NCBI GenBank assembly: GCA_934274515.1
Contig: CAKQTC010000010.1
Span: forward strand, 2,625 to 66,624
Length of the DNA: 64,000 bases
Source of the DNA: an uncultured Clostridia bacterium
GTDB taxonomy: Bacteria; Bacillota; Clostridia; Christensenellales; DTU072
Direction: 5' to 3'
Below the pieces are notes generated by a model. It had not been told where the DNA came from. It worked only from the letters and a program-made list of their open reading frames with translations, and did no database searches. A program made the translations under genes and the position numbers. This document shows positions 5,959 through 61,000 of the stretch, in pieces. Within the stretch, counting starts at the first letter, position 1. Each line of letters starts with the position of its first letter.

Positions 5959-6175
5959 TATTCGTCAAGGGTAAAACGCTTTGCCGCCGACCGACGGTTC
6001 TTGACAAACTCCGCGTCGGGGACAACGCAAAAAATGCGGAGTTTATACACCCGAAACGGCACTTTTGGGAATACAAGCACGCGTATTTACTTTCTTTTAC
6101 GAACGGAAGAACGGAAGTTTGACGAACATAGAAACGACGAGTTTTTTCGGAAAAAATTCCGTATAAAAAGCGGTG

Positions 6176-36814: not shown

Positions 36815-36843
36815 TTGACTTTTGCGTACGCGTGATGTATAAT
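36815..36843 (+). promoter_or_regulatory. Consensus sigmaA-type promoter of the giant gene
   Basis: TTGACT (36815-36820), exactly a 17-bp spacer, then TATAAT (36838-36843). GGAGA (36918-36922) lies 6 nt upstream of ATG 36929. Confidence 0.6.
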
Positions 36844-36928: not shown

Positions 36929-37009
36929 ATGAGTTCGAAAACGTCTAAACTTCTAAAAATTTTTATGATACTTGTGTGCGTCGTGTTGGCGCTGAGTATC
37001 GTCGCCTGT
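36929..37009 (+). other. Lipoprotein (SPase II) signal peptide of the giant protein
   Basis: MSSKTSKLLKIFMILVCVVLALSIVAC|SKRDPQPDG. It has a basic n-region, a hydrophobic core and lipobox I-V-A-C, with Cys27 at 37007-37009, followed by a Pro/Asp/Gly-rich linker. Confidence 0.7.
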
Positions 37010-40000
37010 TCCAAGAGGGATCCGCAGCCCGACGGGCCGGTTGATCCGGGGAACCAGGAAGACCCGAGCCTTACGCCGAGCGAAACGATGAGCAAGGCGG
37101 ACGCTTTTGCGAGGATAAAGAAGTCGATGACTTTTCTCGACCAATCGCTGTACGACGACCCCGAATGGTTGTGTATAGACACGTTTATCGAATTCGATTT
37201 CCATGCCTACGAAAAGGAAGGCGCGGTTTATACCAAGAAAGCGAAAAAGATAGCCGAATACTCGTTGAGAATTAAAGCGAACATCTCGCTTAAAGACAAT
37301 TCGCAGAGCGTTGTACTTCTCGAACTCAGCAACGTTTTCTCGAACCAACTTTACGTGGGTGTTTACTATTACGGCTCCACGACGTATCTCGTTTTCGGAC
37401 AAAACTCTAAATATTATGCGGAAGAAATAAACATTACCACCGTCGGACAAAAACTCGTATCCCTTCTTAAAATGGGGACGAAAGACGAAACGGACATAGT
37501 CGAGTTTATCGGTAACGCGTTACAAAGCAACATAGACATCGAGGCGGTTAAAAAGTTTACGAGTCTTATTTGGATGTTGCTTTTCGAAGAAGATTACATA
37601 GCGGACTATTCGACGGAGTCGTATACTTACAAGGCTCTCGACGAAAACGGAAGAGAGCAGACCTATACCGTCCCCAAATATCAATACATACACGAATATA
37701 TCAAAGCCGACTGGATTCTCGGAATGTTGAAGTCCGGGAAAATTCAAATCGGTAACTTCCTCGACCTTACCATTTCGTGGGAAGGGTTCGGACTGCCCAA
37801 CCTCGACCACGTTTTGCAAGACACGATAGGGTTCGGGCTGGAAGACATTATAAAAAAGAACTGGCCGTCGCTCAGGTTTAGTTTGGACGCCATCACCGAG
37901 ATGAAAGAAGTTATACTTCCCGGCGACAAGAGCAAAGGGTACGAATACGTGTTCAACGGTTTCGGAATCACCATCGATGCGCTTGACGGGGAATTCGACG
38001 TTTCTTTGAAAACGACGCCGTTTTTGATGGAAGTTTGCAACGAGAAACGCTCGGCAATATCCCTTGCCGGTAAAAACTTCGGCGACGCGGGTAAAGGAAC
38101 GACTTACACGAAGGGTAGTTTCACTAACTTGGAAGCGAACCTGCAACTTGCCGTCAACAATTCGTCCGAAGTAGACGAAGTGCTTACCGTCAAAGGGCTT
38201 GCCGGTAATATTATCAAACTCGGCGGAATAGGCGACATACCTATCGTGGTCGGCGGCGGAGCGAGTTACGTGTTCGATTTAGGCGTTGCGGCGAGCATTA
38301 ACCTGTTCGACAACTCGCAAAACTACGCGAAAGCAAGGCTTGGGTACAACGGCAGAGAAGTGTTTGCCGTATATCTCGTTCCCGACTTAGGCAACACAAT
38401 AGTCGGCAAAGAAGCCAAAGTATTGAATACTTTGTTTTTTGATTTCCACAATCTGAAAAGCGGCGGAACGGAGTTCTTGCCTAATACCAAACTGTCTAAA
38501 ATCGACTTGACGAAGAGTTTGTCGGGACTTATCGGCGAAGAGATAATGAAGTATATCGACCCGTACCGAGGGGATACTTCCGCGTCGCGAAACCCGACCG
38601 CGAGCAACGCGTCCAGCGTCGTCATTACCGAGCCGACGGGTATGGACGTAATGAAACTTATCGAACTTCTCATATCGGAGAAGAAAGAACCCGACGCAGA
38701 CGGGCGATATAAATATTTGAGACTGCCTAAGAAAGGGAAATCGACAAAACTCGAAATTTCTCTCGACAACTACGCGATAAACACGATAGCGGCGATGTTC
38801 GTCGGCGGAATGACGCTCGTCGAAGAAGACGACGGCTCGTTGCATTACGAAAACGGTATCGGAATAAAACGCGTTTCCGTAGGGCTGGATTTTGCAAATC
38901 CGCTCAGTTCCATAAGAGTGGCGGCGGACGTAACCGACGACGTTACGCTTAAAGTAGGTATCGGATCCGACAAAGAAGGCGGCGGATACAACACGGGTAT
39001 AAGTTACTTCAAAATGCCCGAATTTGACTTTTCCGCGGTTGGACTTAACAAATATTTGAAAGCGGAAAGCAAAGAAGAGGCGGAGAAACTCAGAAACGAG
39101 TATAAAGAACTTAGTACGACGTTGTCGTATGCCGCAACCGTCGCCGGTAATTTTGCTATCGGTTCGGAAGAAAACACGAGTCTTAATCTCGACTCGATAA
39201 TGAAATATCTTACAGAGAATTATCTCTCGAAGATGGGGATAAACTTGGGGCAACTGCTTGCGTCGGCGAAAGTTCAAAGCGCGAGCGAACTCAGAATAGG
39301 ATACGAAATACAGGTCGCGGCGTCTCTCGTTGACCTAAGTTCCGTCAAAGCGGTAATCGACCTGTACTTCCTGGATAAGAACGGCAATAAGTTCGAGCAG
39401 TTCGGCGGATACCCGTTCTTAGAACTTTACTACGTCGGAGGAACGACCGACACGTTGTATATAAACACGGAAGTAAGTCCGGACGCGGATAAGAACCTTA
39501 CCCAACAACTACACACCGTACTCGGGTTTACCGAAATAATTTTCGGCAACGTGCCGAGATTAAGCGTTACCGACACGGGCATAGCGAAGATGCTTAACGG
39601 CAAGGGGTTGGACATCACGAAAATTCTTGCGTTACTCGGCGTGGTCGGGTACGAAAAAGAAAATCCGTCAAGCGCGGCGAAAGCGATTTATATCACGAAA
39701 GACCTTTTGCGCAACGCGGACGACGACAGCGGAGTGGAAGTTAAACCTAAAGACAACTCGATGCTCGACTTGATTGGCGGAATGATTAATTCCGTCACCG
39801 TAAAAGACGGTGCGCTCGGCGTAATCGTCAACAGAAACGTGTTCGGCGTGGTGATGGGTCTTGCCGGGCTAGCCATCAAAGACGGACTTCCCGAAGTAAA
39901 CGGGTCGTTGTACGTTCATATCGGAACGGAATTCGACAAAGACGGCAACGGAAACAAGATATTCACCGACGAGGGCGGCAAGATTTACACCGCTACCGCG

Positions 40001-43000
40001 ACGGGCGACAAAGTTAAAGACAAAGACGGCAACGAATACGAAATTTCGTCGCTTAAACTAAAAGAAAAACTCAAAGACAGAGCGTTTGCGAGAGCGCACG
40101 TCGGAATAGTGGATTACGCCGACGTAGAAAAAGAATTTTTCTATCTCGACCTTACGCTTATCGATACGGTCAACATCGCGAAAACCGACGTACCTTCGTT
40201 TAAGGGTCCGTTGACGACGGCGGCGACGGAATATACGAGCATAGCGGACTGGTCGAAAAATCTGGAAGTATCGGTAAACGTAGAACTTATGTTTGAGGTT
40301 TCCGCGTCCGAACCCACGACGGAATGGGATAAGGTAAACGACGTTTTGGCGCAACTTTTGCCGTCGGAAACGCTCGCGAATTACAGCGCGTTGTTAAAAA
40401 CCGTTGTCGTAAGGTTTTATAACGACTATTTCTCAAACATATCGAGTAACAACAAAAAAGGACTTAACATCGGTATTGCGATTAAAGGAACCATCGACAT
40501 ATCGGATATATTCGCAAGCGAACTCAGCGTGGTTATGTTCGACGCAGCCGAACCCGACGGTTCGGGTTATACGGCGTCCGACGGGTTGCAGTATAAAGTT
40601 ATCGTAGGTATTTATCTTAAAGACAACAAGGCGTACGTTGACCTAGGATATTTCGGAATGGATTTGCTCGCTCTTAACGACGTGCGCAACACCTATAAAG
40701 GCATAAGAGCGGCGCAGTTTGACGCGTTGTGGACGGAAACGTACATCGAGGACAAGACGAGCGGAAAAACGCTGTTCGTGTACGCGGAAGAAGGCGCGTT
40801 CATGGACGAAGCGTATCGGCAGACGATGCTTACGCATTTCCTTAACAATCAATATTCGCAGTATAAAGGCAACGTGGTATCGACATCGGGTAAAGGTTAT
40901 TACGAAACCGAATTCCCGATAAGCGACTACAAGTATTTCGTTTGGAACGAAAGAATTTTGCAAGCGCAGGAAGAGGATAAGGACGACTATTCCAAACTTT
41001 ATTACGGCGACTTAAAACAGCATTACAACGTATACGTTTACGTTAAGAACGACATAGAAAAGGTGTTCCGTACGGACAGCGGCGACAACACGCCGAAACT
41101 CAACCCCGGGTTCGTCAGATACGAGGTTAAACCGAACGGAGAGATACACGTTTACGACGGCAGAACGGAAACGTCGTTTGTGACGATTTCCCCCGTAATA
41201 AGAGACGGTAAATCTGTTACGCTCAACATCGTCGAAGTGGAAAACAGACTGCGTACGAACAGTTACGGCGAAAGCGATTTCGATTATAAACTGTTCCTGT
41301 CGCAAATGAAGTCCGAGGCGTATAGCGGGTACACGGATTATATCAATCGGTACGTGACGTACTGGAACGCCACGAGAAAAGCCACGCCGAGCGTCGAAGC
41401 GACGATGAACGCCGCGTATATAAGCATCGTCGCGAAGAAGAAACAGTATTACAGCGTAGCGTACGTCAATTCCACCGACTTTACTACGGCGAAGAGTAAT
41501 CTGTCGGCGACCATCGTAAGCGATATGCGTAAACTCGGCGGTTACGAATCCATGACCGCGGCGCAGATAAGAGCGACCGAAGAGTATCAGGCAAGATACG
41601 AGAAAGCGGAAGCGCAACTCGTGCAAAAATACGTTGATTCGAAAGCGGAAGCGGCAGGCATCAACAAAGCGGACAACGGGAACATGATAGCGTACACGAT
41701 GCTGTCTTTGCTTAACGGCAAAGATATGGCGAATTTCGGCGTGTACTCCGAAACGAAAGCGCTTAACGCCGCATTGAAAGCGGAAAGCGAAAAACTTGCC
41801 CCGTCGAACGCGGCGAGCATCGTCGGGCCGGAATCGGGCAATCAAAAATCCTATCTTACCGACGCGGGCGCGATAGCGTTGCAATTCGTGTGGAACAAAG
41901 GCAAACTCACGTTTGAACTCACGCAGGAAGTAATTAACGCGGTTATCACCGGGTTGGGATACCCCGAACTCGGCGAAATAATAAACATCAACTATCTCGG
42001 ACTCGGGATTGACCTTAACCACGGGGTAATGCTCGAAGTAATGGTTAAACTCGGCGACGTATATTCGATATTGCTGAAAATAAACAAACTCGAAGCGAGC
42101 GTCGATCCGAGCGAAAGGGATCGCTATGCGGTCAACGTGGATAAATTCGGCGACGTCGGTATGCCGACGGGTATTCCCGACTCGGTTTACGTGGAAGCGT
42201 CCGTAGGCATTACGTTGCAAAACGTGGTAAACAATCTTGCCGCGGCGGAGAACAAGGACGTTACGGATTACGACCTTACCGACTTACTCAACAGATTTTT
42301 GAGCAATTCGGCGTTTAAGTCGAGCGAACTCGACGCGTTCTACAACGAAATCGCGGAGAGAAACCCGGACAAGAAAGACACCCCCGAAGGAATCGTCGAC
42401 ATAAAGAGAATAGCGTGGCAGCAACTTTACGACAACTATCGTTTGGGCGAAACCGAAGACCAAAAGGCGCGCAGAGCGGAAATGGACAAGGTTTACGAGG
42501 CGACTTGGTCGGATATCGAGAAAAAGCAAAAGAAAGACGATCAAGAATATCTGGGAATAACGAAAGGTAGCGCAAGGCACTATGCTTTGTCGTGGGATAA
42601 ACTCGTATCCGGGTCGGTTAAGATTAACCTTAACGAACTCGGCGTAAAAGTTATCGCGCAGTTGTTTGAAAACATCAACGCGACGTTGTTTGTCGACGCG
42701 GAAGCGCTCGTCAACTTCAACAATATTTATTCGAGTACGCTTAAAGTCACGATTAAGAGATGGCTCGGAGAAAAAGGAAAAGACTACGAAGTAGACGACG
42801 AAAACAAAATCGTAAAAGAACTCACGAACAACGAAAAGAGAAGAAAAGCGGAAACCGTGTTGACGTTCTACTACGACGGTTCGGTAAATACGAGTTATTC
42901 CGAATTCCGCGGCGCGATTTACATCGATACGGATATATTCGGTATCGGGCAGGTAAAACTCGAAGACATAACGGTTATTTGGACGGAAGTATTCAAATAT

Positions 43001-46000
43001 TTCGGCACCGACCAGTTCGGCTCGGAAACGATAAAATCCGTTTATAAATTCTTCGGACTTGACGAAAACGGACAAAACCCGCAAAACGCGCCTTACAGAG
43101 CGAGCAATGCGTCGTACGGAGCGAGTAACGCGGCGTACGGCGAAGAAACGGGCAAAGTGTTTAATGCCGTACAAAACGCGGCAGGGGATACGGTAGTATA
43201 CCTTACCGGCGAAGGCGTTACGGCGAAGACCTATCTCGACGTGATGTTCTACAAGGGAGAACTCGGCATAGGCGTAGCCAAATCCGCGGTGCTTAACGTA
43301 CTTAAACAACTCGCCGGCATCGACCTTACCGATCAACTCGAAGACAAAATCGACTTCAACGCGGCGATAATGCTCAATTTCAGCGACAACTTAGGCGTAG
43401 ACGTCACGGTAAACTTCGCCAACGACAAGGGCGGCAAGAGCGCGATTAAGATAGGTGCGGGAGAAATAAGCCTTAACCTTAACAAAGTGCCCGAAAGGCC
43501 CGACGAAAGCAGGTTCGTAGATATAGAAAAACTTGCAAACATCGGTGCGGCGATAGGCGGATACGCGTCGTTCGAACTCGGGAAAATGGGTGAAACGCTC
43601 AACTACGACTACTTGTTCAAACTGCTTTACGGCGCGATATTCGACGACCGTGACCCCGGCATCGGACTTAGGGTAGGAATCGAAGAAAGCGATATTTTTG
43701 CTCAGACCAACTATCTCGAAATCCGCGCGAACGCGAATATGATGACTATGTCGAAATTCGACGGCATAGAACTTTATCTTACGCTCACGTCCAAGAAAAA
43801 CCACGATATATACGAAGAACTCGGCAAAGAAGGCGGTTGGCGCGCGATTATGGACGAGTATCTCGACAAGGCGACCACTTACGAAAGACGTTGGACGTTG
43901 CTTAAAAACTATGCGTTGAGCAAAAACGACAATGCGGGCGATTCTTCCAAAACCGAAGCGGAAAATCTTCTTGCGGGCGGCGGAAAGTTCTTCTTTAACC
44001 TTATGGAAAAAATAGAAGACGAGATGGAAAACCTGTACGGCGCGATTCTTCCCGAAGAAAAGTATACGAAGTTCTGGAACGAACTGTACGGCAGATGCGG
44101 CGACTATTATATGGGCAACGTGCTCAGCCTGTTCGTTACGCTTAACCAAGGCGACGAGAGTTTAGGACAAAGCCCGATTTACGGCAAGATTTATCTTAAC
44201 CTTGCTTTTCTCGGAGTAGAACCTATCGTACTCGACGACGTAAGCGCGTTCGTTGTGGCGATAGGAAAGAGTTTCGGTATCGATTACTCGAAATTATTTA
44301 ACAAAAACAACAAGAACGACGAAACCGACAAACCGTCCAACGCACCCGTTGCTCTCGCAAACGGCGCGACAAGCGCGATGAACGTGCTCGGTAGTTTCGT
44401 TATCGGCATAGACACGCGTGAAAACAAAGACTTTATCGCGGCGGAAATCACGAGTGCGGCAATATATTCCATACTTGCCGCGTTCGGAGTTAAGGACATC
44501 GAACAGTACTTCGGAGAAGACCCGAGCGGAGGCACGGACAATCCGTACTATCCCGCTTATTCGCCGAACCTTAAAGTAAGCCTGTTCGGGTACAACGAAG
44601 TAGACAAGAAGTACGACTTGCTCGGAGTACAACTTGACCTTAAAAATATGCTTAACCTTAAAATAGCGGTGGAAACGCCGACTATCGACATAGCGCGCGG
44701 AAACAAGCGTTTCGTCATCAGGGAATACGCAAAGAACGAAGAAACGAACAAATACGAAGAATATTACACGACGATTGACCAACAGTGGGATACCACGCTC
44801 AAACTGTCGGTAGACGGAGGACTTTCGCTCGGAGCGAAAGACAGGGAAGACAACGAAGGCAAAGACCCGAAAATCAATCTCGGGGATTTACTGCGTGTAT
44901 TCTTAGGAGATAAGTTCAACGTAGACGTCGTTATCGACACCACGCAATCGATATGGGCGGATTTGCACTTCTATATCGACGCGAAAGTCAACGTGATGAG
45001 CATATGGTCGCTTATAAGCAAAGACGAAGAAACGGGCAAAGCGCCTTACGAATTGCTTACCATACCCGAAATAATCGGCGCGGCAGGAGCGGAAGCGTAT
45101 ATCGAAATAGTTTCGAGAGAAAAACAACTCGACGCGAACGGCAACCCCGTTAAAGACGCCGACGGCAACGAAATCATCAAAGGCGAAAAAGTCCTTATCG
45201 GTATCTACCTTATAAAAGAAAGAAACGACAACGGCGACGAGTACCTGTCGTTGTACGTCGATTTAGGCAGTCTTAATATCAGCCCGATAAGCATAACCAA
45301 CCTTACCGCGACGGGTTCGGATATTTGGAAGAGCCTGAGCAAACTGTTCGGAAAGACCGAAGAAGAAACCGCGCAAATGAAAGCGAAAAACGTTCACGAC
45401 GCGCAACTCGACATATTCGCTATGTACACCGCGATGAAAGCGAGCGAAGTCGCGAACGGAGCGAACGGCGCGAACAACAGATATTCGTCGATTTCCGAAA
45501 TGAGCGACAAGAGCAAAAAGTTACAATCGACGATTTACGGCGAAAACGGCGATTTTGAAACGCTTGCGAAGAGAATAAATGCAGGCGAAAAACCGATAGA
45601 GAACGCGGCTACGAAAGCGAGCAACGCGGACGGGCAGATTATGGACGACTTCATATCCGTAGTCGTAGGCAACGAATACGGCGTGACCGTAACGGCGGTT
45701 GCGGCAGTTCTCATCAAGATGCTCGACGAGGCGTTCAACGACGAAAAGAGTATATCTCGTCGTGCGTTTACCGCGCTTATAGAAAAACGTATAGCGGACG
45801 AAATCGAAGCGGAAAAGAAAGTTTTGAGCAATATATCCAAAAATATGGACAACTTGCTCGCAAGTTTAGGCAGGGAAGACGTAATAGTAAGCAAGAGCGA
45901 ATCGTGGGCTGCGCTTACCGCGGAAAACGGTAACATTCTGCCCGCCGCGCAAAAAGCGACGACCAAGACGCTTTACGACGGCATTGTGGCGAAAGCGACA

Positions 46001-49000
46001 AAAGACGGGTTCAGCACAGCGACTACAAGGGACGAACAAGTCTTGCAGTCCATAGCGTGGGACGCTTATTACTGGACGATTAACGGCGTTTCTTACGACG
46101 ACGCGGTAAAGGTTTATCCGAACAGAGCCCAGAATTCGGGAGACGGAAAGAAATACGATATAACTCTCGATAAGTTCAACGAATACACTTCTCTCGGCAT
46201 TAAATCCGGCGACACGACGTTAGGCGGACTTATCGGCGGACTTACCGACAGACTTAAAGACGCGTTGACCGAAAACGAAAGAGTGGTGCTTACCGCGGTA
46301 GAGTATACCGAATATTACTATGAGGCGGCGGCGTTCGACAACTACGTACGATATCTCGAAGATATGTTGTACGTGCTTAACAGAGTTTACGACGAGGCGA
46401 AAGCGAAAAACACGCATCCCGGAACGAATAAAGAACTTTATAACAAGCAGATAGCGTACGATATTCTTACTTCGGACAACGGAAGCCGCAACTACACGTT
46501 GCCGGCGATAAACGGCGGCTCGCAAACGAGAGATTTCCATCTCGATGCCGAAGATTACACGCTGTTTATCGGCTGGTACGACGCGTACCTTAAAGGATAC
46601 GAAACGGCAGGGGAAACCGACGCGAAAGCAAAGACGTGGCAAGACGTCGTCAACAGGTATCAAGCCGCCTATGCGTCCGTTGTCAACACGATAAACACGG
46701 TAAACGCGAGCGCGTACAATTTGTTCTACGGCGCGGGCGTTACCCTCGACGAAGGAGTACTTCCGTTCTCTACGGCGAGAGCGGCGGGTATTACGTGGTA
46801 TGCCAACCTTAAAGTACCGGTTAAGTACAGCGGTTTCGACGCAAGGTTCAGTCTTACGTTCAAGACGTACGCGTGGGAGTATCTCGTAGAATCGGGTTGG
46901 GTGGAAAAAGTCCACGAAACGCGGTTTATCTCGGCGGAAATGGCGAAAATCACGTCCGCCAACAAAGGCAAAGACCAAGAAGCGTATAAGAACTACGCAT
47001 GGCCGAAATATTATTCGGACGTAAAGACCCTTACCGAAAAAGGCGAAGGGTTCGGATATGTGCTTGCGCGCAACTGCACTTACGTACTCGAAGAGGCGAA
47101 GCAGGGTGCGGAAGTTAAATATCGCAAAGACTTCTCGGACGCGGATAAAGACGCGGCGGGAAGAACGACGTGGAGACTCGTTAAACTCGAAGACGATTTG
47201 CTCAACACGATGGACGAACTGTTTGTGTCGTCACGTTCCGACGTACCGAGCGTAATAGTCGATACGGCAGGCGGCGTAGGTACCGTGCAGGTAGGGTTGC
47301 TCCACGCGAACAATCTTGTATCCGTTCACGTATGGCTCGGGAACTTGGAAATGGGCTTGGCGTTTGTGGGCGCGGGACTGTACCTAGACGAATACGACCT
47401 TAATAAGAGCGTGTTTATCGCGAAGAAAAATGAAGGATACTGGCAACAGGAAGAACGTCAACAACTCGTTGCCGATTATATTCACGAACTTCCCGACGGA
47501 CATTTCGCGCCGTTCGATAAAGACTTCAAATACGTTTACGCGAAACTCTCGCTCGACTTCGATTTAGACGCAGATCAAACGAGTTTCAACCTGCAAAAAC
47601 TTATCGACGTCGTTATGGCGGATCTCGGTATAAATATCGAAATCGCCGGGAACGCAATCGGGCTTAATCTTATACTCGAAACGTTGCAAGTCATATCGAA
47701 GAAATTTAGGCTCGAAGTGGAAGCGAGAGTAAACCTGTTCGACCTGTTCAAAGGCGAACTCGGTACGACCGACCTTGCGCTTACGTTGTACGCGCTCGAA
47801 GGCGGCGGCGACAGAAAGATACTTCAAATCGCGCTCGGTTCTTATATCGATTCGGAAGATGGCAAAGCGAAAAACTTTGTCTACGTCGATTTTAGTCGGT
47901 TTAACATTCAAAGATTGATAATCCGCGACGCAATCGAGTACGTAAGAGACTTGTTCGGCGGAAAAGCGGCAAACGCGTTTGCTCCGTACGATTTCGACTA
48001 CGTCGGTTCGGTACCCGAACTTTTAGGCGCGGCGATGATGTACGGCGTCATGAAGAGTGCCGACGAAGACGGAGTCGTCGCGTCCAACGCGTCGGCGTCC
48101 GGAGAAAACGAAAAAATCGATATAAAACTCAGCAAAGCAGGATTGTCAACCACGGTAGCGTCGGGAGCGATTTACGCGTTGCTTAACTTCTTCGGACTTC
48201 CGCAGATTGAAAAATACGTAAGTAAAGCGGTTGACCTTACGCTCGGCGTGGACATTTTCGCGGTAGACGACGATTTGATAGGGAAAGATTTCACCGACGC
48301 GGACAGGGATCTTATAAGATTGTCGATTGCGCTCAACTCGCTCGGTAAAGACGGCACGACCGCGGATTCCACGGGCGTACGCTTAGACTTCGGTATACAT
48401 AAAGCCGAAGTATCTCTCGACCAAAGAAAATTCGTACTCGGAGCGGACAGCGCGGCGAACCTCGAAAGCAAACTCGATTTGCCTAAAAACGACAAAGGCG
48501 AAAAACTTTACGCGGAAATAGCGGAAGAATTGCCGAACTTGGTATTGACCACCACTATCGAAGTGCAGGTTAAGGCGGAAGAAGTAAGCAGACAGGACTT
48601 TAACAAAGCCCCGATAAAGAATATTCTCGACACGCTCACCAAAGAAGGTAATTTGTCGAGCATAATCGGACAGATATTCTTTGAAATTTACGACGACCAC
48701 GATATGACGCTCGCAATCGACGTTGCGGCGGACGTGGATCTCGGCGACGGCTCGGATAAGAACTATCTCGACCATATAATAAAAGGTTCGATAGTGCGTA
48801 TTCAAGTAAGAGCATGGCACACGAATACGTCCACGAGCGAAGGCGACGTAGAAGAACTCAAAAAGAAAGTTTGGGCAACCCTAACCTACTATGAAGGGGC
48901 GCTATACGTTGACCTTAGCGCGCTTAATATACAGAAAATCAAACTCGACGATGCCGCAGGACTGGTGTTCGGCAAAGGCGAAAAAGCAAAGAACGCATGG

Positions 49001-52000
49001 ACGGAAGTAGGCGAGATGTGGAAAGCGGCGTCTACGCTTACTACGAGAACGAATCTGGAAGCGACGATATACGGCGACAGCGACGGTATTTATCTTATGA
49101 TAGAAAAAGCGGCGATAAGTTCGCTTATAGGAGTACTGGGCTTCGGTTCTCTCGAAGTGGTGACCGACGCGCTTGCGGAACTTTACGTCGAAGCGATTAA
49201 AGTCGGCGGCGACGCCATAAGTTTAGGACTCGGCGTAAACATAGCGATAGATTCCAAGGGTACGATATTCATAGACGGCGGCGAGAGCGGCATAAAAGAC
49301 CCGAACAGGGGCAATAGCGACATAGACGCGACGTTTGTCGTACACGCAGGCGTACGCGGAATTTACATAGGATTCCACAATCTCGAAGACTGGTCGCCCG
49401 TTAACTCGACGGAGTACAACGAAGTAAGAGAAATCAACGTAATCAAACTCGGTACGCAAGCGTATCTCGAACTCGGTAACGAGAAGGGAACGTACGAACT
49501 CAAAGCGCTTATCGAAACGTTGCTTAAAAAACTCGACGTTAACCTCAATCTCAACAAAGAACTCCAAGGGATAATCGAACTTCTCGACGCAAACGACGTT
49601 AAGTTCGAAATAGCGGTTGACCTGGATCTCGGAATAGGCACGATAATCAACGACATTCTTTCCGGAACCAAGAGTTTCGGGGACGTGTTACCCGACGATA
49701 TAATGACGCTTATCAAAGCGTTGCAGGCGAAAATCACGCTTAACATCGTAAGAGAAGGCAAAGCGAATTCCAAAATAGTACTCGCGCTTATTCGCGGCGA
49801 CGCGTATCTCGACCTGTCCGGACTTAACAAGACGCTCGGCAAAGGAAAGATAGAAAACGCGATAGAACTCATCGGTTCGCTTATCGGCGGAGAAGCAAAG
49901 AAAGGTTCTTACGTAGCGGAACAGGCGAGCAACGCGACGCAGGCTTTGGCAGGACTGGTAAACGCGCTTGCGAAAGCGAAAAACGGTTCTCCTGCGGTTA
50001 GCGACGCGGAACTCAACGCGCAATACCTGCATTTTGCGTTAAGCGGAGTGGAAGGGCTTACGGTTACGGTTATTTACGGCGCGGTTAAGAGCGTCGTGCG
50101 GTATTTGCTCGGCAGCGAATCCCTTGCGGAAGTCATAGATATGATTTCTCTCGTAAGCAACCCGTCCGCGTCGGCGAATCTCGGTTACGACGTGGAACTC
50201 GGACTCAGACTGATCGTACCGAGCACGGTATTCAACGATAACGATTTCAACAAGATGAACGCGCTCATGGAAGACGGTAAAAACTTCTTCGGATACGGCA
50301 AAGAAAGAGTAGAAGCGTTCACCGACGAAAAACCGTTCCTCGACCCGAACAAAGACGGACAGGGATACAACTACGTTATCAACGCGAACGGGCTTACGGT
50401 AAACAAGTTCGCGCGGGCGATAGCGGAAAAGACTTTACTTTATAAGAAATACACGATAAGCGACACGGAAAAGGCGAACAAAGTCAACGAACTTATACGT
50501 ACTACGTTCCTTGCGAACGGCACGTCCGTGGAAAAACTGTTGGCAAACTACGCGGCAAGATACGAATTCTACGACGAAAACGCCTGCAAAGTCGCGCTTT
50601 ACGACTACTTGCTCATAGAAGCGTACGAAAACGGCAAAGACTTCGAAACGTATTTCGGCGGTTCGACGAGTGAAGACAAGACCGTTGCGGGGAAAGTGTT
50701 AAAAGATTACCTGTACGGTAATGAAGAATCGGGAATACCGAAAGCGTACGGCGAGTTCGAAGCGTTTATGAAGAACGTGTACGACGTCGAAAAAGACGTT
50801 GACCAAGCGGCGTACGATTTTGTGACGGCGTATTTGAAAGGGCTTATCGTATCGAGAGACGCGTGGCTCGTGCTTATCGGCGCGGAGATAGAAACCGTCG
50901 GCGACGGACTTATTATCCATAGCAAGAAATACGACGACTTGTACGATGAATTGTTGGTCGAAGCGTGGGAAGAAAAATTAACTCGCGTAGACAACGCGAT
51001 TAAAGCGAACGAAAGTTTTGAAACCGAACAAAACAAGACGGCGTTTGCCGAAGCGTGGAGAGAAAAGGCGTATATGATTTATTCGGAGAGTTACGCTAAG
51101 ACGACCGCAGGCGAAAGAGATTACCGCGCGGTTGCGTACGAAGAACTCACCGAATTGTTGGAAACGAGCGCGACAATTGAACTCAGCGGTATGCGCAACG
51201 ACGACAAGAACACGTACAAGAGCAAACTGTGGGACAACGCGATGATTTATACTTATTGCGATCCTTCCGCGGTAGCCATACTCAAAGGCGTGGACGAAAT
51301 AAATACGGAAGGTTCGGATAAGGAAACGGCGTTTAGAAAAGCGAGAGAACTGATGCACTCGATTACGAGCGGTATCGAGGCGTACGCTTTGGAAGCGTTG
51401 ACGGGTTCGAACGCGAACGGCAAGGATATGCTTACCGGAGAAGAAGAGATTTCGCTTGCTTACGACCTTATTTACGACTTCAAGAGCGCGGTGGCGGGCG
51501 TTAAGGAATACTTCGGCGGAAACGTGGGAGACTCCACGCGTAAACTGCTTGCGGCGATAGGCAAGAGTCTGTACGAAAAGGGATACAAACTTGCAGGCGC
51601 GGGAAGCGGCGGCGCGATGTCGAACGAAGATTACGCGAAGTTGTACGAAGAAGCGTACGCGTTGAACAAAGAGTTGTTCGCGCAGTTTATCGCCGGCGAA
51701 ACGGCATATACGAACTATATGCATAAATCGTTTAGCGAGAAAGCGTGGGACGCGCTCATCGGCGGACTTAACTTCGAGATAGAAAATACCGACGATTTCC
51801 TTAAAGCGGCGGAAGCGTATATTAGTGGCGATTCCGTAAGCGGAACGCTTTACGAGTCACTTGTAAGGGCAAACAAAAAGACGCTTATGTATATTCTCGA
51901 AAATATACATTACGATTATTGGAAAGCGAAACAATCGATAGCGGCGCAGGGCGGTAGCGGAATAGACGAAACGTTGTTCGACGCGTTCGGAAAAACCACG

Positions 52001-55000
52001 GTGGCGATGTATGCTACCGATGGTATGATAAGCGCGCTGACGAATATGATAAGCGATTCGTTCTCGAAAGAATACGTTTACGCTATGGCACTCGCGTTTC
52101 TTGCGGCGAGAAAAGCCGCTCCGACGCTTGCACCCGCGTTTGAAACGGACGGACTCGGAGTAGTAGAACCTATACTTGCAGGCAGCGACGACAAAACGTT
52201 TATCTATGCCGCGGCGTACGGCGCGCTCGCGAAAGTGGCGACGGGTAACGCAAGCGACGAAACCAAAGCGGCGGCTGCGCTCGCAAAGAAATATTACGAC
52301 GCGTTTACGTCGTCAAAAGAATTCTATTCCGACGAAACGGCAAGACTGCGCGTTGACGAGTTTGCGGAAATAGCGGCAAGACTTTACGTCGGCGCGACCG
52401 CGACCGTTAAAGGAGAACTCGAACTCGCGGCGTACTACTACGGACAGCGTTCGGACAGAATAACGATTGCCGGCACGGATATGAACGCCGAAGAAATGAA
52501 GGCTTTGGAAACGTTGAAAAAAGCGAACGGCGAAGGTTCGCCCGAACGCGACCTTAAAGACGCGGCGTACAGACGCGTACTGCGCAGTTCTTCCACGGCG
52601 GAAATGTACGAAGAGTACTTGGCGGTAAGAAGTAACTTCATTTTTGAAGTCATCTATAAGAATTCCAAGGAAAACCGCGAAGCGTTGAAGAGCATTATAC
52701 TCGTATCCGCCGACGCGGACGTCAACAATATGGCAAGCGCGGTTATCGGAGAAGGCACGGCGTTTACCGCGGAAAACATAGATATTTACTATGAAATTTA
52801 CAACGAAGAATACAGTAAAGAACTCGGCAAATTCATAGAAGAAGTCTATAAAGAAAGTATAGAAAAATCCAAGGATACGAACGAATCGAAAAAATCCGTA
52901 AGTCCGATACTCGAAAAAGCACTCGAAACGCTTGTTTACAAAGTATTGTATAACAAACTTACCGTTAAAGAACAGGCGGCGACGCTTATCGCGCTTTATC
53001 GCGAAGCGGAAACGCTCAGCGCGGATATTAACGACGCGCAATACGCGTTGATTAAAGAGTTCTATAAAGAATTCGGAGAAGCGGTGTCTGCGTTCGCGAC
53101 CGAAAGCGGCAACCTGAAAGACGTCGCGGAAGAACTGCTCAAAGGCGAAGGGTATTCGAACAACGCTCTGCTCGGCGAATTGACAAGCAAGGAAATTATC
53201 GATTACTACAACAAACTCATAGCGGGGCTCGGCGCAAATCTCGACGCGAAAGTCGTGGAAAAAGACAAACCCCTCGTTGCGGGAACGGCAAACGACAAAG
53301 TTGCCGGCAAAATGTACGAAACAATCAAAACGTTCCTTGACGACGATAAGGCGTTCCGTAACAACAAGAACGAAACTACCTACAAAGCGGAAACCGTGGA
53401 TAATCAACCCAAACAAGACGATTTAGGGTACGATAAAATTAATAAGATACAAAAAGTAAGAGATTACTTTATTGTTACGCATACGCTTTCTATAGACAAC
53501 AGCATAAGTTTCCCGATGTACAGCGGCACGTCTTCTATATGGAGAATGCTCGGTATCGGCGAAATGCCGTTCAGAAACCCCATAGAGAACAAGAACCGTG
53601 CGACGAAGATGGTTCTTAGCGACGGAACGGTAGTTCCTGCGGCGTGGACGACGAGCGGCGGCGACGCGCAATGCTGGATAGAAACGGCGTATTCTCAAGA
53701 AGACGAATTCTCCATCGAATACGAATACAAATCCGAAGGACCCGATTCGCCCGACGAAGACGAGGCGGAAGCAATGGAAGCGGCTCGCGACGAAGCGCTT
53801 AACGCTTACATTAAGAGCGAGGCGTATAAGGCAAAAGTCGCGGCGCTCGTAGCGGCAACGAAAGCCGCGTTCCGCAAAGACGTAAACGATCTTATCAAGT
53901 TTACGGGAATGATGCTCGGCACGGAACCGATGACCACCGACCCGTCCGTAAGCATACCGAAGTTCGACGTTGTCGGCGGAGCGAGCGACAGAACGTTTAT
54001 TAACCTTGTCAACGCGGCGAATACTGCGGAAAAGTTGTACGCATACGCAAACAGCGCGATAAACGCAATGAATTTGTGGATGGAAGAAGTTGAAGAAATC
54101 GGCGAGAGCACGGTTGACTTCGCGACGTTCAAAATAAGCGCGCTCAAACACTTCTATTCGTATCTTAAACCGGTAGACAACAGAGAATACTACAAACATT
54201 ACGCGCAGACCGGCGCGCTCGGAAAAGTGCTTGACGCACTCAAGGCGGAAAATAATTTCGTACCGGCAAACGGCAGCGAACTCGAACGTCTTGCGACCGT
54301 TCGCGACAAGATACACGGATATTTAGGCGAACTTAAACTAAACGAAACCACGGAAGCGGTCAGCGGAGAAAAATCGCGTGAACTCGTATACAAATATTAC
54401 GTCGAGTTAAAAACCAAAGCGTCCGCCTGGATAAGTTACGAAGACGTTAAGACCACGGCGGGAAGAACGCTTGCCGCGATACTTACCGATATGGCGGAAC
54501 AGGTAAGACTGCTCTCGTTCGAGTATTACGCGTATACCGTATACCGTTTGTTCGACAGAATGACGGACGAAGGCAAGACGTATTCGGGCGGGAAAAAGTT
54601 AAAGAAGACTGAAGAATGGTACGAAGGCATATCGAAGATGAAAGAGACCGACCAGGCGGCGGTTAAAGCGATTTTCGATAAAGTATTGTACAACGTAACG
54701 CTTTACACCTGTATGGACGAAAGCACGACTGCGGAAAAGGATAAAGAAACCGTAATCGAAATGCCGTTCTCGTCGTCTACGATGTATATGACCAAAGAAG
54801 AGATGGCGATTTTCGCGGAAATTCTCTTCAATATGACCAAAGAAAAGGCAAAACAGTATTATCCGTTCGATTACACTCTCGAAGCGTACAAGTCCTTCTA
54901 CGGCGCGACTGCGACGGAAAGAGAAACGTATTTGGCGAGAAACGCGGAAAAGACGATTAAATACGTCGCCAAAATAATCGAGGAGTACGGAGCGGACACG

Positions 55001-58000
55001 ATAGGGTCGATGGCGGCTTTGCGTTCCGCAACGATATCGGCGTACAACAAGATAGCAAGTGAGATAAACAAACTCACGGACGGAGAGAAATATTCGTTCG
55101 TCAAGATGTTCGTTGACGCGCAAAGCAAAGCGACCAAGGCAGGACTTACCGGTGCCGAAATGCAAATTTCCGTTATGTGCGATATTATAAGCACCGTTTA
55201 CGGAGGAAGGAACGTAAGCGTGGTTTATCCGCCGAACAACCCCGGTAGCGAGATGAGAATTGCCGTAGGCACCGCCTGGACGAACCTCAAAGGGTTTATG
55301 CTTAACGGCGAAAGCGGAGCGACGATAGGCGGGAAAATTCGCACTTGGTACGAAATTCTCTTCGGAAGAGAAAACGACGCAGGATACCTCAGAGATAAGG
55401 ATATCGCGTTTGCAAACGCTTATGCGTTCAACGTAGACGTCGCCGACTTCAAAGGCAACAACAGTCCTTACGACGTACTCAAAAACAGAATATTCGTCGA
55501 TTTCAAGGCGATGTATCTCGAAGTTATGTTCCCCGACGCGTCCGCGGAAGGTATCGAATCGATACAAGATCTGCTCGCGCGCATTGACGGAAAGAGTTAC
55601 AACGCGACTTATACCGATTTTGTCAAACTTGCCAAGACGTTTGTCGAAACGTACGACGGAGCGGTAGTTGCGCTGGAAACGACGGGCAAATACCAAGCGG
55701 AAGACATCGACGCGTACGCGAAAATCATCGCGCTTAGAGAAACGCTTTGTTTGGTTTACTCCGCGACGTCGTTCGACTTCACGGTTTACGGCGCATGCAC
55801 GCGTTACGCGTTGGAAAAACTGTTCATCGAGTACGCCGCCAACCTTACCGAGAAGACCCTCGACGCGACGGACGGATACAAGACGAAGTACAACTACGGC
55901 GGAGCGAAAGACACGACGTTCTTCGACGATTACCTCATCGACGTAGCGGGAAGAACGGGCAACGTGACCACCGTGTTCGACGGATTGAAAGCGATGAGCG
56001 GAGCGACGAAAGCGTACGGAGATAAACTCGCTTCGTATGTAAAAGCGTTATTTACGCAAACGGACGCGTTGAAAATGCTGTATCGCGACCTTGTCGAAGT
56101 TCTTGCGCCCGGCGAAACGTCTTTCGATATAGTCGGTTACGCTCAAAACAACGGTTACAAAGCGGCGTCCGCGATGGTTGCGCTTATCACGGCGAAAGAC
56201 TACGGCGTAAGCGGACTTACCGAAAAACTTAAATCCGTATTCAGAACCTACACGGCTAAGACGGATATTTCGACGTACCTTATTTACAAATACGACAGAC
56301 TCGCGTCCTACCTTGCCGCAGACTACGATAACCTATACGATCTGCTTAGCGCTTCTTCGGAAGTTAGCGATAACAAAATAATCAAACCCGACGCGGACCC
56401 CGAATCCGAACTGAATAAGAAGTTTGAAAACGCAAGGAAAGATAGCGCGAGTGCCGTCGAGAAAGCGATTATGCTTACCAAGATAGTAGCCACGATAGGC
56501 ATGAGTTTCGACGACATTAAGGACGACGAAGCGAGAGAACTGTACATAAAAGCCTATAAAGTGCTTAGAATGACGGAAAACGCGTCCGAATATCTAAGAC
56601 AGGAAGAATGGACGAGTTACTTCGGCGGCGTAAGCAGAGCGACGCTTGCGGACGAATTCGACGTGCTGTACGACGCTATTATGAAGAATTCGACCGACGC
56701 GACTTTCTACGAATCGATAACGGACGACAAGAAAGCGCTTATAAACGCGGCGCGCGAGAAACTCGCGGTGAGCGCAAACGACAAAGAGAAGAGCAAAGCG
56801 ATGTTCGTTCTCGTAAACGCTATACCCGAAGGACATGAACTTAACGGCGCGACGGCGAACGCGATGGTGAAGACCGCTCGCGAAAAATTCGTCAGACTTA
56901 ACATAAACGACGCTAATTTGTTCGATTCGCTTTCGGATAACGCGTGGAGAAAGCAATACGGCGGACTCGAAGCGACTTACGCTACGGTAACGCCCGCGCT
57001 CGAACTCAAAACGTTGCTTGACAGCATAAACGAGAATCCGGACGACGAAAGTTCGATAAAGAAACTTCTCGACAATCTTAAATTCACCGAAACGGCGAAG
57101 TATCTCGATTCGTACATTTATCAACTCGACTACGACGTTAAAGCGGAAGCGAGCGAGTTTGCGCAACAACGCGAACTCGTGGAGAGAGCGTTTGTAAAAG
57201 CGTATAACGCGGCGGCGAATACGAGATACGACGTGGTGGAAATCGACCTCGGACTCGGCGTGGAGATAGGAAAGACGTACGTAGGCGCGGAAATCGACCC
57301 GGACAACTACCGCGAAGACGTTTTGCCGTTTGAAGAACAGACGAAGTTTATCAACTACGACGAAATGCAACTGTATTTCGAATTCGGCGGATTCTTCTCG
57401 TTCGGGTTCGGCGCAGGCAACGCGGACATAGCGCAGATAGTCAACCTTATTCTCGGCGGATTCAACATTTCGGAAATCTATATAGAATTCTTAAAAACGC
57501 ACATAATGCTCGGCACGTTAAACGCGAAAATCGCGCTTGACGTAGCGAAAGCGTTAAGCAAAGACGAAGCGCAGATTAAACAGGCGCTTGCGGCGGAAAT
57601 AACGTTGAAATACGCCCTTATCGACAACGACGAAAGGGGCGAAACCACTCGTTTCGAGCAACAAATCATATCGATTACGGTATACGACGGTTCTATATAT
57701 CTATCGGCGGAAATCTTCGATATGAAACTTAAACTCAGGCTCGACTTCGACGCGATGAGTTATCTGCTCAAACTGCTCGGCATTATCAAAGAAACCGCCG
57801 ACGAAACTCCGTCTACGGCTACGCCGCATCTAAGCGATATAAACGCAGCCATCTCTTCCGCGCTTAACGGTTGGAGCAAACAAACGGCGAAAGAAAAGAA
57901 CACTCCGATAGGACAACTCGCCAATGCTGCTGCGTCGTCAAGCGGAAAAGACGTGCTGGAAGCGCTCGTAAGAATAGGCAGCGACGAAGCGAGTCTTATC

Positions 58001-61000
58001 CTTACCGTAGATATTCTTCTCGAAGCGTTCAACCTGTTGCTTAACGACAACGAAGCGACGGATATGCTAAACGACATTATATTGATGATATTTACGTCGG
58101 GTAGCGCGAAAGTCGAATACGGCAAAGACTTCGGTATCAATCTTAATCTTAGCAAGAACAGGACGATAAGCGGCGACAAGAACACAAGCGACAACCTTAG
58201 TTACGACATCAACTTAGGATTGTTCAACGATACCGTATTCTATATGAATTCGGTGGATAAACACGAAGATAAGAAAGACTATTTCAGCGACTTTACTACG
58301 GAAATACGCACAAGAAGCGAGAACGGCGAGTTCGACACGTATTTCGTAATGGGGCTCGACCTAATCGGTATGCTTAACGGTATCGGTGCCGGAACGGGCA
58401 AAATCGACGTAGGCTCGCTCGTTACGGACATCATCGGCGACAGACTGCAAATGGGCGTAACGCTCGAAATGGATTCGGAAATCCTGCGTACCGCGATAGA
58501 CTGGAGTAAATTGTTCAGCGCGATGGGTACGCTCAGCGTAGAGCCGATATTCCTTTTGAGAGTGCTTAACTCGACAAGAGGCGCGATAAGATTCGACATA
58601 AACATCGACCTTGACATATCCAAAGTCAACTTCGACGTAAGTTTGAGAGCGTACAACAACGGCGTCAACATCTTTAACGTGTACGAACTCAGCGGAACGC
58701 TCAATACCGACGATACGCCCGCGTTCGCGCCTAAGTTCTATTGCGATATGGGCGAACCTAGACCCGACTGGTCGGCGGAAGACAACAACAAACTCGCAAA
58801 CGAGAAATACGTCATCACCGCGCAATCCTTGTACGACTTCCTTAAAATTAACCTTATGGAAGTTATTCTCGACTTGACCGGCGCCGACCACGACGAAATC
58901 ATCGTAGACAGAGCGGACAACGCGCCCGCGTTCGGCAACGACTCGGCGGTTGAATTCAAAGACATCGACTTCGGTAAAGTATTGCAGAGCGTTACGTTCG
59001 GACAAGGTACGCTCGGTATACGTTTGAGCGAAGCGATACTCAACACGCTTATCAAGTTAATCAACGCCAACTGGGAATTCGACGATATGGGTAACGTTCG
59101 TCTCGATATCGACTTCATGCGGAATACCGTAGGAATAACCGTACCCCTCGACGCCGCTGTCAGAGACGCGGACGGCAATATCCTTTCGGACAGTAAACTT
59201 AAATATGGAATAGAACTCAGCAACATATCCCTCCACATAGGCGAGGCGGTTGACTTCATTTCCGTAACCGGAAAAGAAACCTATTCGGCGTTCAAAGATT
59301 ATAAAGAAATCACGAAATTCGTATGGGTAAGCGAAGTAAACAGTTCGCTCGGATTGCATAACGACGACGAGAATACGATGGTTGACCTCACCGACCTTAC
59401 GATGCGGTTCATCGACGGACTCGGAATAAAACTGCAAAACGGCGAGTCGTTGCTCGACGTAAGTCTTGATTTCGTACTGCGTACCTACATCGACTTCTCG
59501 GACGTAACCAACTTAGGGTTCGAGTTATTGATAAACCGCAGAGGCAGAACGCTTATCGGAATAACGTTTATCGGAGCGGAAAGAGAGGGCGACGTATACA
59601 TCAATCTCGAAGGGTTAGGCTTGCCGAAATTCTATATGACAGGCGTCGATTTAGGCGGCAAGATAGTCGAAATACTTAAAAAACTCGAAGATTCCACGTC
59701 GAAAGACGAGCAGGAAAAACCGTCCAACGCCGACGGCTCCATATCCGGCGGAATATCTTCGGGCGACAAGACGGCGATAGAATACCCCGACATAACCCAA
59801 GCGGGCATAAGCGCCAACCTATTGCTCGCGCTTATAGACGAAAACAAGTTCAACGTGGCGATGACCGGCGCGTTGCTACTCAATCTACTCGGAACGTTGC
59901 CGAAAATTAAAGATATAAGCGCGATGATACCGACGTTTGCCAACCTGCAACTCGGCTACGAAAAGGACAAACTCAGCGGTATAAAATTTGTTTACGACGA
60001 AGGGCAACACTTCTTCATCGATTATAACTTTGAAAAGAGTTATTCCTATCTCGTACCCAAACGCGACCTACTCGACAAGGCGAACAAGGACTACGACGAC
60101 GCAAGAAGCCATATGGTAAGCGACGCGGATAAGAAGGATTTTGTCAATATCGACAATCTTAAAAACGTTAACTTGGGTCTTACCGTCGATATGACGCTCG
60201 TAACAGTCAATCCCGACGGACAAAAGAGCGACGTGGTAAAACAACTCGAAGCCTTGCTCGAAAAACTGTTCGGAATGAAGACGGGCAGTATCGACCTGCA
60301 ATTCCAAGACGCATACGCGTCCATAACGATTGCCGCGGAAATCATAGCCGACCTTACGGATATAAACAATTCCAAACTGAAACTGGAAGTCCTCTACAAC
60401 GGCGAAACGCTTATAGGAATTTACTATCTCAACAAGAAAGTATACCTCGATATGAGCGAACTCGGACTGTTCCAAGCGGCGGTAAACGGCATAGACCTTG
60501 CGGGTGCGTTAAACTACTTCCTCGGCGGCAAACTTCCCATCGATCTCGACGAAGATAAAGGACTTGACGTCAAAGGGCTTGTCACCTCCCTTATCGGAAT
60601 AAGAGCGGGAGAAGAAACGGGTACCACCGACAAGACGGCGACGAGCATTACCGAAAAGAAGATAGAAACCGCCATAGCGGAACTCAAAAAGAACTACGAA
60701 ACGCGTTATAAAGCAGGCGAGTTCAAAGATATAACCGCCACCGAAAAAGAGGCGATTAAAAACGAAATCAAAGACGCGCTCAAACAAATTAACGCCGACA
60801 ACAAGAATTTGCTCAGCCAAAGCGAGTACAACAAAGTTTACGACGAGATTATTAAGAGTATAGGATTCCGTCAAACGGGTTCCAAAATCAACGTCGAACA
60901 AGACAGGAAACAGACTGCGATAATCGCGGTGTCGCTGTTCAACGACAGAATAGAAATCGCGCCTACGACGAAAGCGCTCGGAAACCTTCTCGGCGTGGAT

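Follow-up and report, generated by a model that had tools for sequence, protein, structure and literature searches.

A recurring beta-hairpin marks an approximately 250-residue repeat unit in giant predicted lipoproteins of Christensenella-like Clostridia

We asked what is encoded by a giant gene in the genome of an uncultured Clostridia bacterium (Christensenellales, DTU072), and what the hairpin motif that recurs along its translation represents. The window, that is, the whole stretch of 64,000 nucleotides that was analysed (contig CAKQTC010000010.1 of assembly GCA_934274515.1, positions 2,625 to 66,624), holds on its + strand a frame (frame 2) that is free of stop codons from 36836 to the window end at 64000, a distance of 27 kb. 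An earlier note on this DNA had listed at least 11 copies of the motif in this frame and had proposed that they derive from an ancient, internally duplicated beta-module. We find that the recurring motif is real and far above chance, and that it is the most conserved piece, hairpin plus closing helix, of a new alpha/beta repeat unit of ~250 residues. The N-terminal half of a giant predicted lipoprotein is a tandem array of 14 such units. Amino acid numbering starts at 36836 (nucleotide = 36833 + 3 x residue).

All 13 peptides that had been listed, comprising 11 motifs and two weak N-terminal versions, were found in frame 2 where they had been placed. The strict pattern h-Y-[VIL]-[DN]-[LFTM]-x-x-[LFI]-[GN]-h (h, hydrophobic) occurred 8 times, compared with 0.01 +/- 0.10 times in 1,000 shuffled sequences, and looser patterns occurred 10-11 times, compared with 0.2-0.7. 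In a self-scan with leave-one-out hidden Markov models (HMMs), 9 of the 11 copies came up as the best new match, whereas the copy at residue 875 was missed and that at 6955 was marginal. A profile iterated over the relatives described below recovered all 11 copies and both weak ones (residues 125-221 and 430-572), showing that the latter are real, and added a 14th, degenerate copy that the list had lacked (~residues 7240-7325, KFYCDMGE). Self-BLAST of 300-residue windows gave weak matches, which connected motif-bearing regions. The motif-to-motif distances of 0.85-7.9 kb were correct, and there was indeed no repetition at the DNA level (self-blastn, 0 matches at E<=1e-3). With 14 copies at 15-25% identity and a copy count that is kept across the family, the proposed ancient duplication of a beta-rich module is borne out.

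Alignment of 164 compact inter-motif segments yielded a 248-position model (the unit HMM). The unit was conserved along all 248 positions, beyond the motif alone, and in the window the model matched 14 units, for the most part over almost their full length (Table 1). Each unit runs from a low-complexity linker of Ala, Ser, Asn and Glu through part A and a short connector to part B, with about 11 strands and 3-4 helices in total. Part A (consensus ...GINLAITLGDEGLSVALTKALLNALLGLLGLDL..., then about four strands) consists of two strands, an amphipathic helix (LLxxLLGxLG) and about four further strands. Part B (consensus IYLSLEGELELELKEG..IDLGDLLGSLLGDL...LELELEANLNLKDLSNSELALELYDKDGEVVLGIYYDDGDLYVDLSGLGLGKVKI..DLASLIGGLLGG) opens with a long strand and a helix, which are followed by a four-strand antiparallel meander that finishes in the hairpin LIGIYY / turn / LYVDLSxLG and a closing helix; the motif described previously is the final 45 residues of this part. 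A strand and helix ending in LG, spotted by eye, failed leave-one-out on the window copies alone and was later identified as part A by the family-wide unit HMM. An origin of parts A and B from one another by internal duplication was rejected (hhalign probability 0.4%). In unit 6, about 120 residues are inserted ahead of the hairpin KIYLNLAFLG, and unit 8 has its first part A strand and helix at ~residues 2938-2970, ahead of insertion 2. The part-A-like segment that follows unit 14 may, from its sequence match, represent a 15th unit that is truncated; 15 module matches are seen in some relatives.

The fold of the unit was approached by modelling and by couplings. AlphaFold2 was run on unit 14 (residues 7624-7910) with a 70-row alignment made up of paralogous units of both the window protein and its relatives, and gave a mean predicted local distance difference test score (pLDDT) of 66.8, with 76-95 in part B. 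The topology of part B was E-H-E-E-E-E-E-H (E, strand; H, helix), with a 13-residue strand, a 13-residue helix, strands of 13, 8, 9, 5 and 5 residues, and a final helix. The model is limited to one unit because MAFFT misregistered tandem units or split single-unit rows (127 of 149 non-target rows); from an earlier three-unit run on a 2-sequence alignment (pLDDT 32), the secondary structure alone was retained. Mean-field couplings were computed from 397 rows of consecutive units (effective number of sequences, Neff, 304) with gap filtering and zero-sum gauge. This showed antiparallel ladders for E6-E7, E7-E8, E8-E9 and E10-E11, of which E6-E7 (columns 130-174, 132-172 and 127-177) reached z of up to 10.7. 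Each ladder was present twice, in both part B copies per row, and had the constant i+j of antiparallel hairpins. The alternating strands that had been seen ahead of the motif are therefore real, being present in the family consensus, the AlphaFold secondary structure and the ladders alike, and the beta-meander suggested earlier is an antiparallel one of 4-5 strands that closes in the hairpin. A beta-solenoid, which had been raised as an alternative arrangement, is excluded by the antiparallel strand pairing, and the period is ~250 residues, as opposed to parallel coils of about 18-30 residues. Further couplings link the YVDL strand (E10) to two part A strands, E2 and E5, as well as to E6, H2 and H3. 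Because it is coupled to strands of both parts and to two helices, it is the central, buried strand joining parts A and B, and this position explains why the YVDL motif alone stays recognisable.

The earlier note had also suggested that the copies might form one continuous sheet or groove, possibly of the repeating beta-groove (RBG) type seen in AsmA, TamB and VPS13. Among the couplings from the 397 rows there was no strand ladder between consecutive units, and inter-unit pairs made up 26-35% of the top-ranked couplings, compared with 48% of all pairs. Together with the low-complexity linkers and the tolerance of insertions of up to 2,400 residues, this argues against the units being one continuous structure. 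The same evidence bears on the idea of a bridge-like lipid-transfer protein, in which the units would be stacked as a long hydrophobic beta-groove (AsmA/TamB/YhdP/VPS13-like) leading from the membrane to an outer layer. Long, strictly amphipathic strands, the great length of the protein and its predicted N-terminal membrane anchor speak for this idea, as do a few inter-unit couplings that rise above a permuted control and a YdbH-like match (E=0.13) from one of 70 units searched individually against Pfam. However, the YdbH-like match was the sole AsmA-family match among the 70 units, no Pfam family was matched by more than one of them, and the whole protein gave no match to the AsmA, AsmA_2, DUF748, TamB or YdbH-like profiles of Pfam and NCBIfam. 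TamB, VPS13, ATG2 and other bridge-like lipid-transfer proteins were likewise absent from the top 50 Foldseek matches listed for the medium-confidence single-unit model in the PDB. The unit, with its helices and about 11 strands, differs from the five strands plus loop of an RBG repeat, and the anchor is a lipobox, not a transmembrane helix. Furthermore, Christensenella minuta, which stains Gram-negative, is listed among the Bacillota without lpxABCD, lptA, OmpH and BamA (PMC11448272). Because Christensenella is reported to be without outer-membrane and lipopolysaccharide genes, a lipid bridge from the membrane to an outer membrane is unlikely in this lineage, and we regard the lipid-transfer reading as a whole as very improbable.

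Searches against other known families and folds were equally negative. The giant protein gave no Pfam or NCBIfam match besides a sub-threshold carboxypeptidase-regulatory-like one, and PDB sequence searches with both protein halves, the module profile, the unit profile and the C-terminus of an orthologue gave none. With the medium-confidence single-unit model, Foldseek found no PDB match at E<=0.001 (best E=0.046-0.3, with template-modelling (TM) scores <0.3) and nothing significant among viral structures. The best weak PDB matches were major histocompatibility complex (MHC) class I platforms, FabZ hot-dog domains, OspA and LmcA. Such sheet-plus-helix platforms and hot-dog-like folds (MHC class I, FabZ, LmcA) would suit an array of binding sites, in which each unit is a sheet-around-helix pocket for a hydrophobic or glycan ligand and the protein captures host or dietary molecules at the surface. 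The coupling of helix H2 to the central strand is consistent with this, as is the location of genes for handling N-acetylglucosamine (GlcNAc; PIG-L, ROK and GH20) directly upstream of the giant gene in several relatives. On the other hand, every structural match has E>=0.046 and TM<0.3, and the GlcNAc-gene synteny is absent from the window and may reflect genome relatedness only; we give a ligand-binding array a small chance.

A profile of ten window copies was searched exhaustively with HMMER against 1.84 billion representative proteins. This rescan with the motif copies returned 56 proteins at E<=0.001, 27 of them at E<=1e-10, many of which are 6,500-7,900 residues long with 8-11 separately matched stretches. 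Iteration of the profile over these relatives yielded 352 copies. The window protein and 10 of 16 other full-length proteins carry 14 copies, four carry 13, one carries 12 and one carries 7; additional relatives carry 14-15, and the spacing between copies in the compact proteins is 235-330 residues. At least 12 tandem 248-position units after a lipoprotein signal were thus found in the window protein (14) and in all but one of the full-length relatives (12-15). The signal itself, L-x-x-C after a hydrophobic stretch, was present in every examined relative with an intact N-terminus, and one relative carries Big_4. The genome matches were metagenome-assembled genomes (MAGs) labelled uncultured Catabacter or Christensenella, Christensenellaceae, Christensenellales, 'Candidatus Stercoripulliclostridium' or unclassified Clostridia, with one exception, a Fibrobacter-labelled MAG; NCBI treats Catabacter as Christensenella. 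No cultured isolate was seen among them. Single-unit phmmer searches for orthologous segments found few matches, because the window protein belongs to a divergent subfamily. The 14-unit giant predicted lipoproteins define a repeat domain family that Pfam, NCBIfam and the PDB do not contain.

The probable start of the giant gene is the ATG at 36929, with GGAG just 5' of it. The N-terminus of the window protein, MSSKTSKLLKIFMILVCVVLALSIVAC, reads as a signal peptide closing in a lipobox (...LALSIVA-C, residues 20-27, which fits [LVI][ASTVI][GAS]C), and the product is accordingly a predicted lipoprotein. A colinear orthologue in a MAG labelled 'uncultured Catabacter sp.' is 82% identical over residues 201-7741, nearly without gaps (82-88% identity for L003 and L011). 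Since the orthologue frame stops only ~3,500 codons beyond the position that matches the window end, the full product would be about 12,500 residues long (37.7 kb). The ratio of nonsynonymous to synonymous substitution rates (dN/dS) between the window gene and the orthologue was 0.16 overall, with values of 0.10-0.13 for the repeat units and 0.12-0.21 for the insertions, showing that the giant gene is under purifying selection. Nine thousand residues without annotation or known domain could be taken for an open frame that arose by chance, an artefact of assembly or a pseudogene in decay. This reading was ruled out, and its chance is negligible: the frame is stop-free over its whole 27 kb, the orthologue is colinear with hardly a gap, dN/dS is low, and 56 database relatives have matching architecture. 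Many long open reading frames (ORFs) with TTG starts (150-400 residues) run antisense to the giant gene (36953-59259, - strand); they are probably not genes and arise as a by-product of the strongly purine-rich coding strand (AT skew about +0.2).

Three large stretches of 360-2,400 residues had no unit match (Table 1). All of them sit in a linker or in early part A, and compact relatives are without them, so they are lineage-specific. It had been claimed that a variable, alpha-helical part always follows the motif. Large insertions do lie between copies, but the motif itself is followed by a short linker and the conserved part A of the next unit. The largest insertion is clearly enriched in helix-formers (fraction 0.445, compared with 0.37-0.41 in the units), whereas the other two are not. 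Insertion 1 is not helix-biased in composition, and by eye it has beta-like, aromatic-rich stretches, unlike that description. Insertion 3 had a single database homologue (P0102, 42% identity), a 3,731-residue predicted protein with precomputed Pfam matches to ClpX/AAA domains that is probably a gene-call fusion on a short contig. Self-BLAST gave a weak match (E=8.6e-4) between residues 3179-3272 of insertion 2 and 6086-6175 of insertion 3; from this similarity the two may share an origin.

The linkers carry a short motif, x-[SPQTA]-N-A-x, that occurs 12 times in the window. In 11 of the 12 cases a module ends at most 110 residues earlier (p=3.5e-8); the remaining one lies just ahead of part A of unit 5. 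Variants such as ASNAS, PSNAD, PSNAP and ASNAT, with the pattern x-[SP]-N-A-[SDEPT], stand before part A of most units (for example at 38600-38615, 43079-43130, 44333-44345, 45617-45630, 48080-48095, 49925-49940 and 59720-59735). By eye, a second subfamily has S-E-A-x-T-A-[AD]-[DE] at the equivalent linker position. The motif could be a processing, glycosylation or recognition site. If it were a cleavage site (x-S/P-N-A-x, or S-E-A-x-T-A-D), the giant protein would be a polyprotein that gives rise to ~14 domain-sized proteins, for example surface-layer subunits. The position of the motif just ahead of part A in most linkers, the different but equally regular motif seen by eye in the second subfamily and the near-fixed unit number of 13-15 in almost all full-length members are in line with this. 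In contrast, no protease domain was found in the giant protein or in adjoining genes, several window linkers are without the motif, and low-complexity Ala/Ser/Asn linkers are frequent in surface proteins that are not processed. A polyprotein therefore has, in our estimate, a slim chance.

The likeliest reading, to which we give about even odds, is that the independent domains are strung together as a membrane-proximal stalk and that the giant protein serves at the surface as a fibril, an adhesin or a component of an outer layer. The protein would be held by a lipid anchor on its N-terminal cysteine at the outer face of the cytoplasmic membrane, and its 14 units would fold separately, joined by flexible linkers. 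The array would then act as a long stalk or spacer across and past a thin wall, lifting the C-terminal ~4,500 residues to the cell surface. This C-terminal part would include a carboxypeptidase-regulatory-like sandwich and is otherwise without annotation; the corresponding PF13620 match reaches E=9.5e-6 in the orthologue and is also precomputed for one relative (P0081).

Several points weigh against the stalk reading. No adhesin-type Pfam domain or wall-anchor motif was found in the window protein or in the orthologue C-terminus (...NLKVHINIV, without LPXTG); of the tandem Pfam domains and wall anchor of Ig-like-repeat adhesins, only the sub-threshold CarboxypepD_reg match was seen. The C-terminal region has almost no detectable internal repeat, and the sole source names for family members are 'hypothetical protein' and 'carboxypeptidase-like regulatory domain-containing protein'. 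In the model of unit 14, part A is of low confidence (pLDDT 30-70) and the overall predicted TM score (pTM) is 0.52. A few isolated inter-unit couplings (z up to 6.9, compared with a maximum of 1.4 in the permuted control) may leave room for some contact or for a shared lineage signal, and the weak Foldseek likeness to ligand-binding folds of the sheet-over-helix type would be in keeping with a part in binding and not a purely structural one. The repeat, its anatomy and fold outline, the family, the selective constraint and the lipobox are established by the data; the location at the surface, the role as a stalk and an adhesive or envelope function are inferred. A more specific version, to which we assign a minor but appreciable chance, is that the unit is a new fold and that the family (~7,000-12,500 residues) is a new class of envelope component, which builds, or tethers to the membrane, a non-lipopolysaccharide outer layer that would give Christensenella-like bacteria their Gram-negative look in spite of their missing outer-membrane genes, with processing at the linker motif as a possible extra feature.

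Table 1. Features of the giant gene and its predicted product (nucleotide positions in the window; aa, residues)
Feature	Position	Strand	Evidence or remark
Giant gene	36929..64000	+	first 9,024 codons; runs past window end
Lipoprotein signal peptide and lipobox, MSSKTSKLLKIFMILVCVVLALSIVA followed by C	36929..37009	+	read from sequence
Unit 1 (aa 125-221), part B only; weak motif copy 37343-37399	37208..37498	+	module HMM E=6.5e-9; unit HMM match
Unit 2 (aa 384-571); weak motif copy 38354-38395	37985..38548	+	module HMM E=1.2e-11; unit HMM match
Unit 3 (aa 589-927), hairpin TLYINTE	38600..39616	+	unit HMM E=9e-16, model positions 9-235
Unit 4 (aa 959-1294), hairpin VIVGIYL..AYVDLGYFG	39710..40717	+	unit HMM E=4.6e-15; leave-one-out 16.2 bits
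Insertion 1 (aa 1300-1657), linker between units 4 and 5	40733..41806	+	gap between unit HMM matches
Unit 5 (aa 1658-2060), hairpin IYIDTDIFG	41807..43015	+	unit HMM: part A 1658-1826, part B 1914-2052
Unit 6 (aa 2106-2488), hairpin KIYLNLAFLG	43151..44299	+	unit HMM 2106-2336 E=8e-25; hairpin 2442-2483 in leave-one-out
Unit 7 (aa 2501-2846), hairpin VLIGIYL..LYVDLGSLN	44336..45373	+	unit HMM E=1.6e-22
Insertion 2 (aa 2975-3475), within early part A of unit 8	45758..47260	+	unit HMM resumes at 3476, model position 59
Unit 8, main part (aa 3476-3715), hairpin FVYVDFSRFN	47261..47980	+	unit HMM E=2e-17
Unit 9 (aa 3748-4056), hairpin LYVDLSALN	48077..49003	+	unit HMM E=4.6e-21
Unit 10 (aa 4065-4359), hairpin AYLDLSGLN	49028..49912	+	unit HMM E=3.6e-22
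Insertion 3 (aa 4360-6802), lineage-specific	49913..57241	+	no unit HMM match; dN/dS 0.21
Unit 11 (aa 6803-6990), hairpin SIYLSAEIFD	57242..57805	+	unit HMM E=9e-15
Unit 12 (aa 7023-7325), degenerate hairpin KFYCDMGE, newly found	57902..58810	+	module HMM (relaxed threshold); unit HMM E=0.0015
Unit 13 (aa 7361-7623), hairpin TLIGITF..VYINLEGLG	58916..59704	+	unit HMM E=8e-31
Unit 14 (aa 7644-7901), hairpin TLIGIYY..VYLDMSELG, modelled unit	59765..60538	+	unit HMM E=2.8e-32; AlphaFold part B pLDDT 76-95
Extra part-A-like segment (aa 8029-8156)	60920..61303	+	weak unit HMM match E=0.0012, model positions 22-161
Carboxypeptidase-regulatory-like beta-sandwich PF13620 (near aa 8388)	61997..62125	+	E=2.7e-4, below Pfam cut-off

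The neighbouring genes in the window include pyruvate:ferredoxin oxidoreductase, tilS, hpt, a CCA-adding enzyme, P-type ATPases and two-component systems, and are ordinary chromosomal genes of an anaerobic Clostridia-type bacterium. At 17144-20296 (- strand), a 1,050-residue protein with Peptidase_M60 (enhancin-like), a mucin/carbohydrate-binding module and Ig-like surface domains suggests a mucin-associated lifestyle in a host gut. The upstream neighbours of the giant gene in the window are SLOG/LOG-like and HAD genes, which differ from those in relatives. In four relatives (L004, L005, L008 and L010) a gene for a PIG-L family deacetylase immediately precedes the giant gene, often accompanied by ROK and GH20 genes, and in L004, L006 and L007 Mem_trans, Band_7/zinc-ribbon, DUF1858 and cupin genes lie downstream. 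The orthologue is followed by DUF2804, a GH3 glycosidase and a P-type ATPase. In L005 (27478-34290) and L008 (22124-25179), a second very large unannotated ORF (2,270 and >1,611 residues, respectively) directly follows or overlaps the end of the giant gene and may represent either a second giant gene or the first one continued after a frameshift.

The giant gene would occupy more than 1% of a typical genome and, because it does so while under purifying selection along its whole length, it is likely to be important to the cell. Christensenellaceae are among the most heritable and health-associated taxa of the human gut, and their surface biology is barely charted. The family offers a concrete candidate explanation of envelope organisation, or of attachment to hosts and partners, in these 'atypical Gram-negative' Firmicutes. 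Applied to annotation, the 248-position profile gives a defined architecture to ~3,500 residues in each protein that would otherwise be labelled 'hypothetical'.

Giant repetitive surface proteins are familiar from Gram-positive bacteria, as exemplified by Ebh, SasG/Aap and the Bap-type adhesins. Like these, the window protein is very large, belongs to host-associated bacteria, combines tandem divergent domains and linkers with a secretion signal, and is probably exposed at the surface, as far as its sequence indicates. Unlike theirs, its repeat matches no Pfam, NCBIfam or PDB family. It has an N-terminal lipobox, and its orthologue is without the C-terminal LPXTG of proteins anchored by that motif. 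Where the adhesins vary in repeat number, the unit count here is fixed at 13-15 in almost every full-length member of the family.

With the AsmA-like/RBG proteins (TamB, YhdP, YdbH, VPS13 and ATG2; reviewed in PMC10345924), the window protein shares its length, predicted N-terminal anchoring in the cytoplasmic membrane and repeated amphipathic antiparallel strands. It differs from them in that its units contain helices and are discrete domains, separated by low-complexity linkers and huge insertions and not joined by an inter-unit ladder; there is no sequence match, nor a fold match among the top 50 Foldseek matches of the single-unit model, and the host lineage is reported to be without outer-membrane genes (PMC11448272). 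In our search of the literature, no paper linked giant proteins to Christensenellales. A metagenomic survey of giant proteins of >10,000 residues from uncultured bacteria, including gut Clostridia, describes products most of which likewise lack annotation, with a presumed role at the cell surface (West-Roberts et al., bioRxiv 10.1101/2023.11.21.568195). The Clostridia giants of that survey, which makes no mention of Christensenellales or lipoproteins, are built of RCC1, beta-propeller, dockerin, leucine-rich (LRR) or fibronectin repeats, unlike the family described here. A giant repetitive surface protein is a known kind, whereas the repeat domain, the fixed 14-fold array and the predicted lipoprotein anchoring are new.

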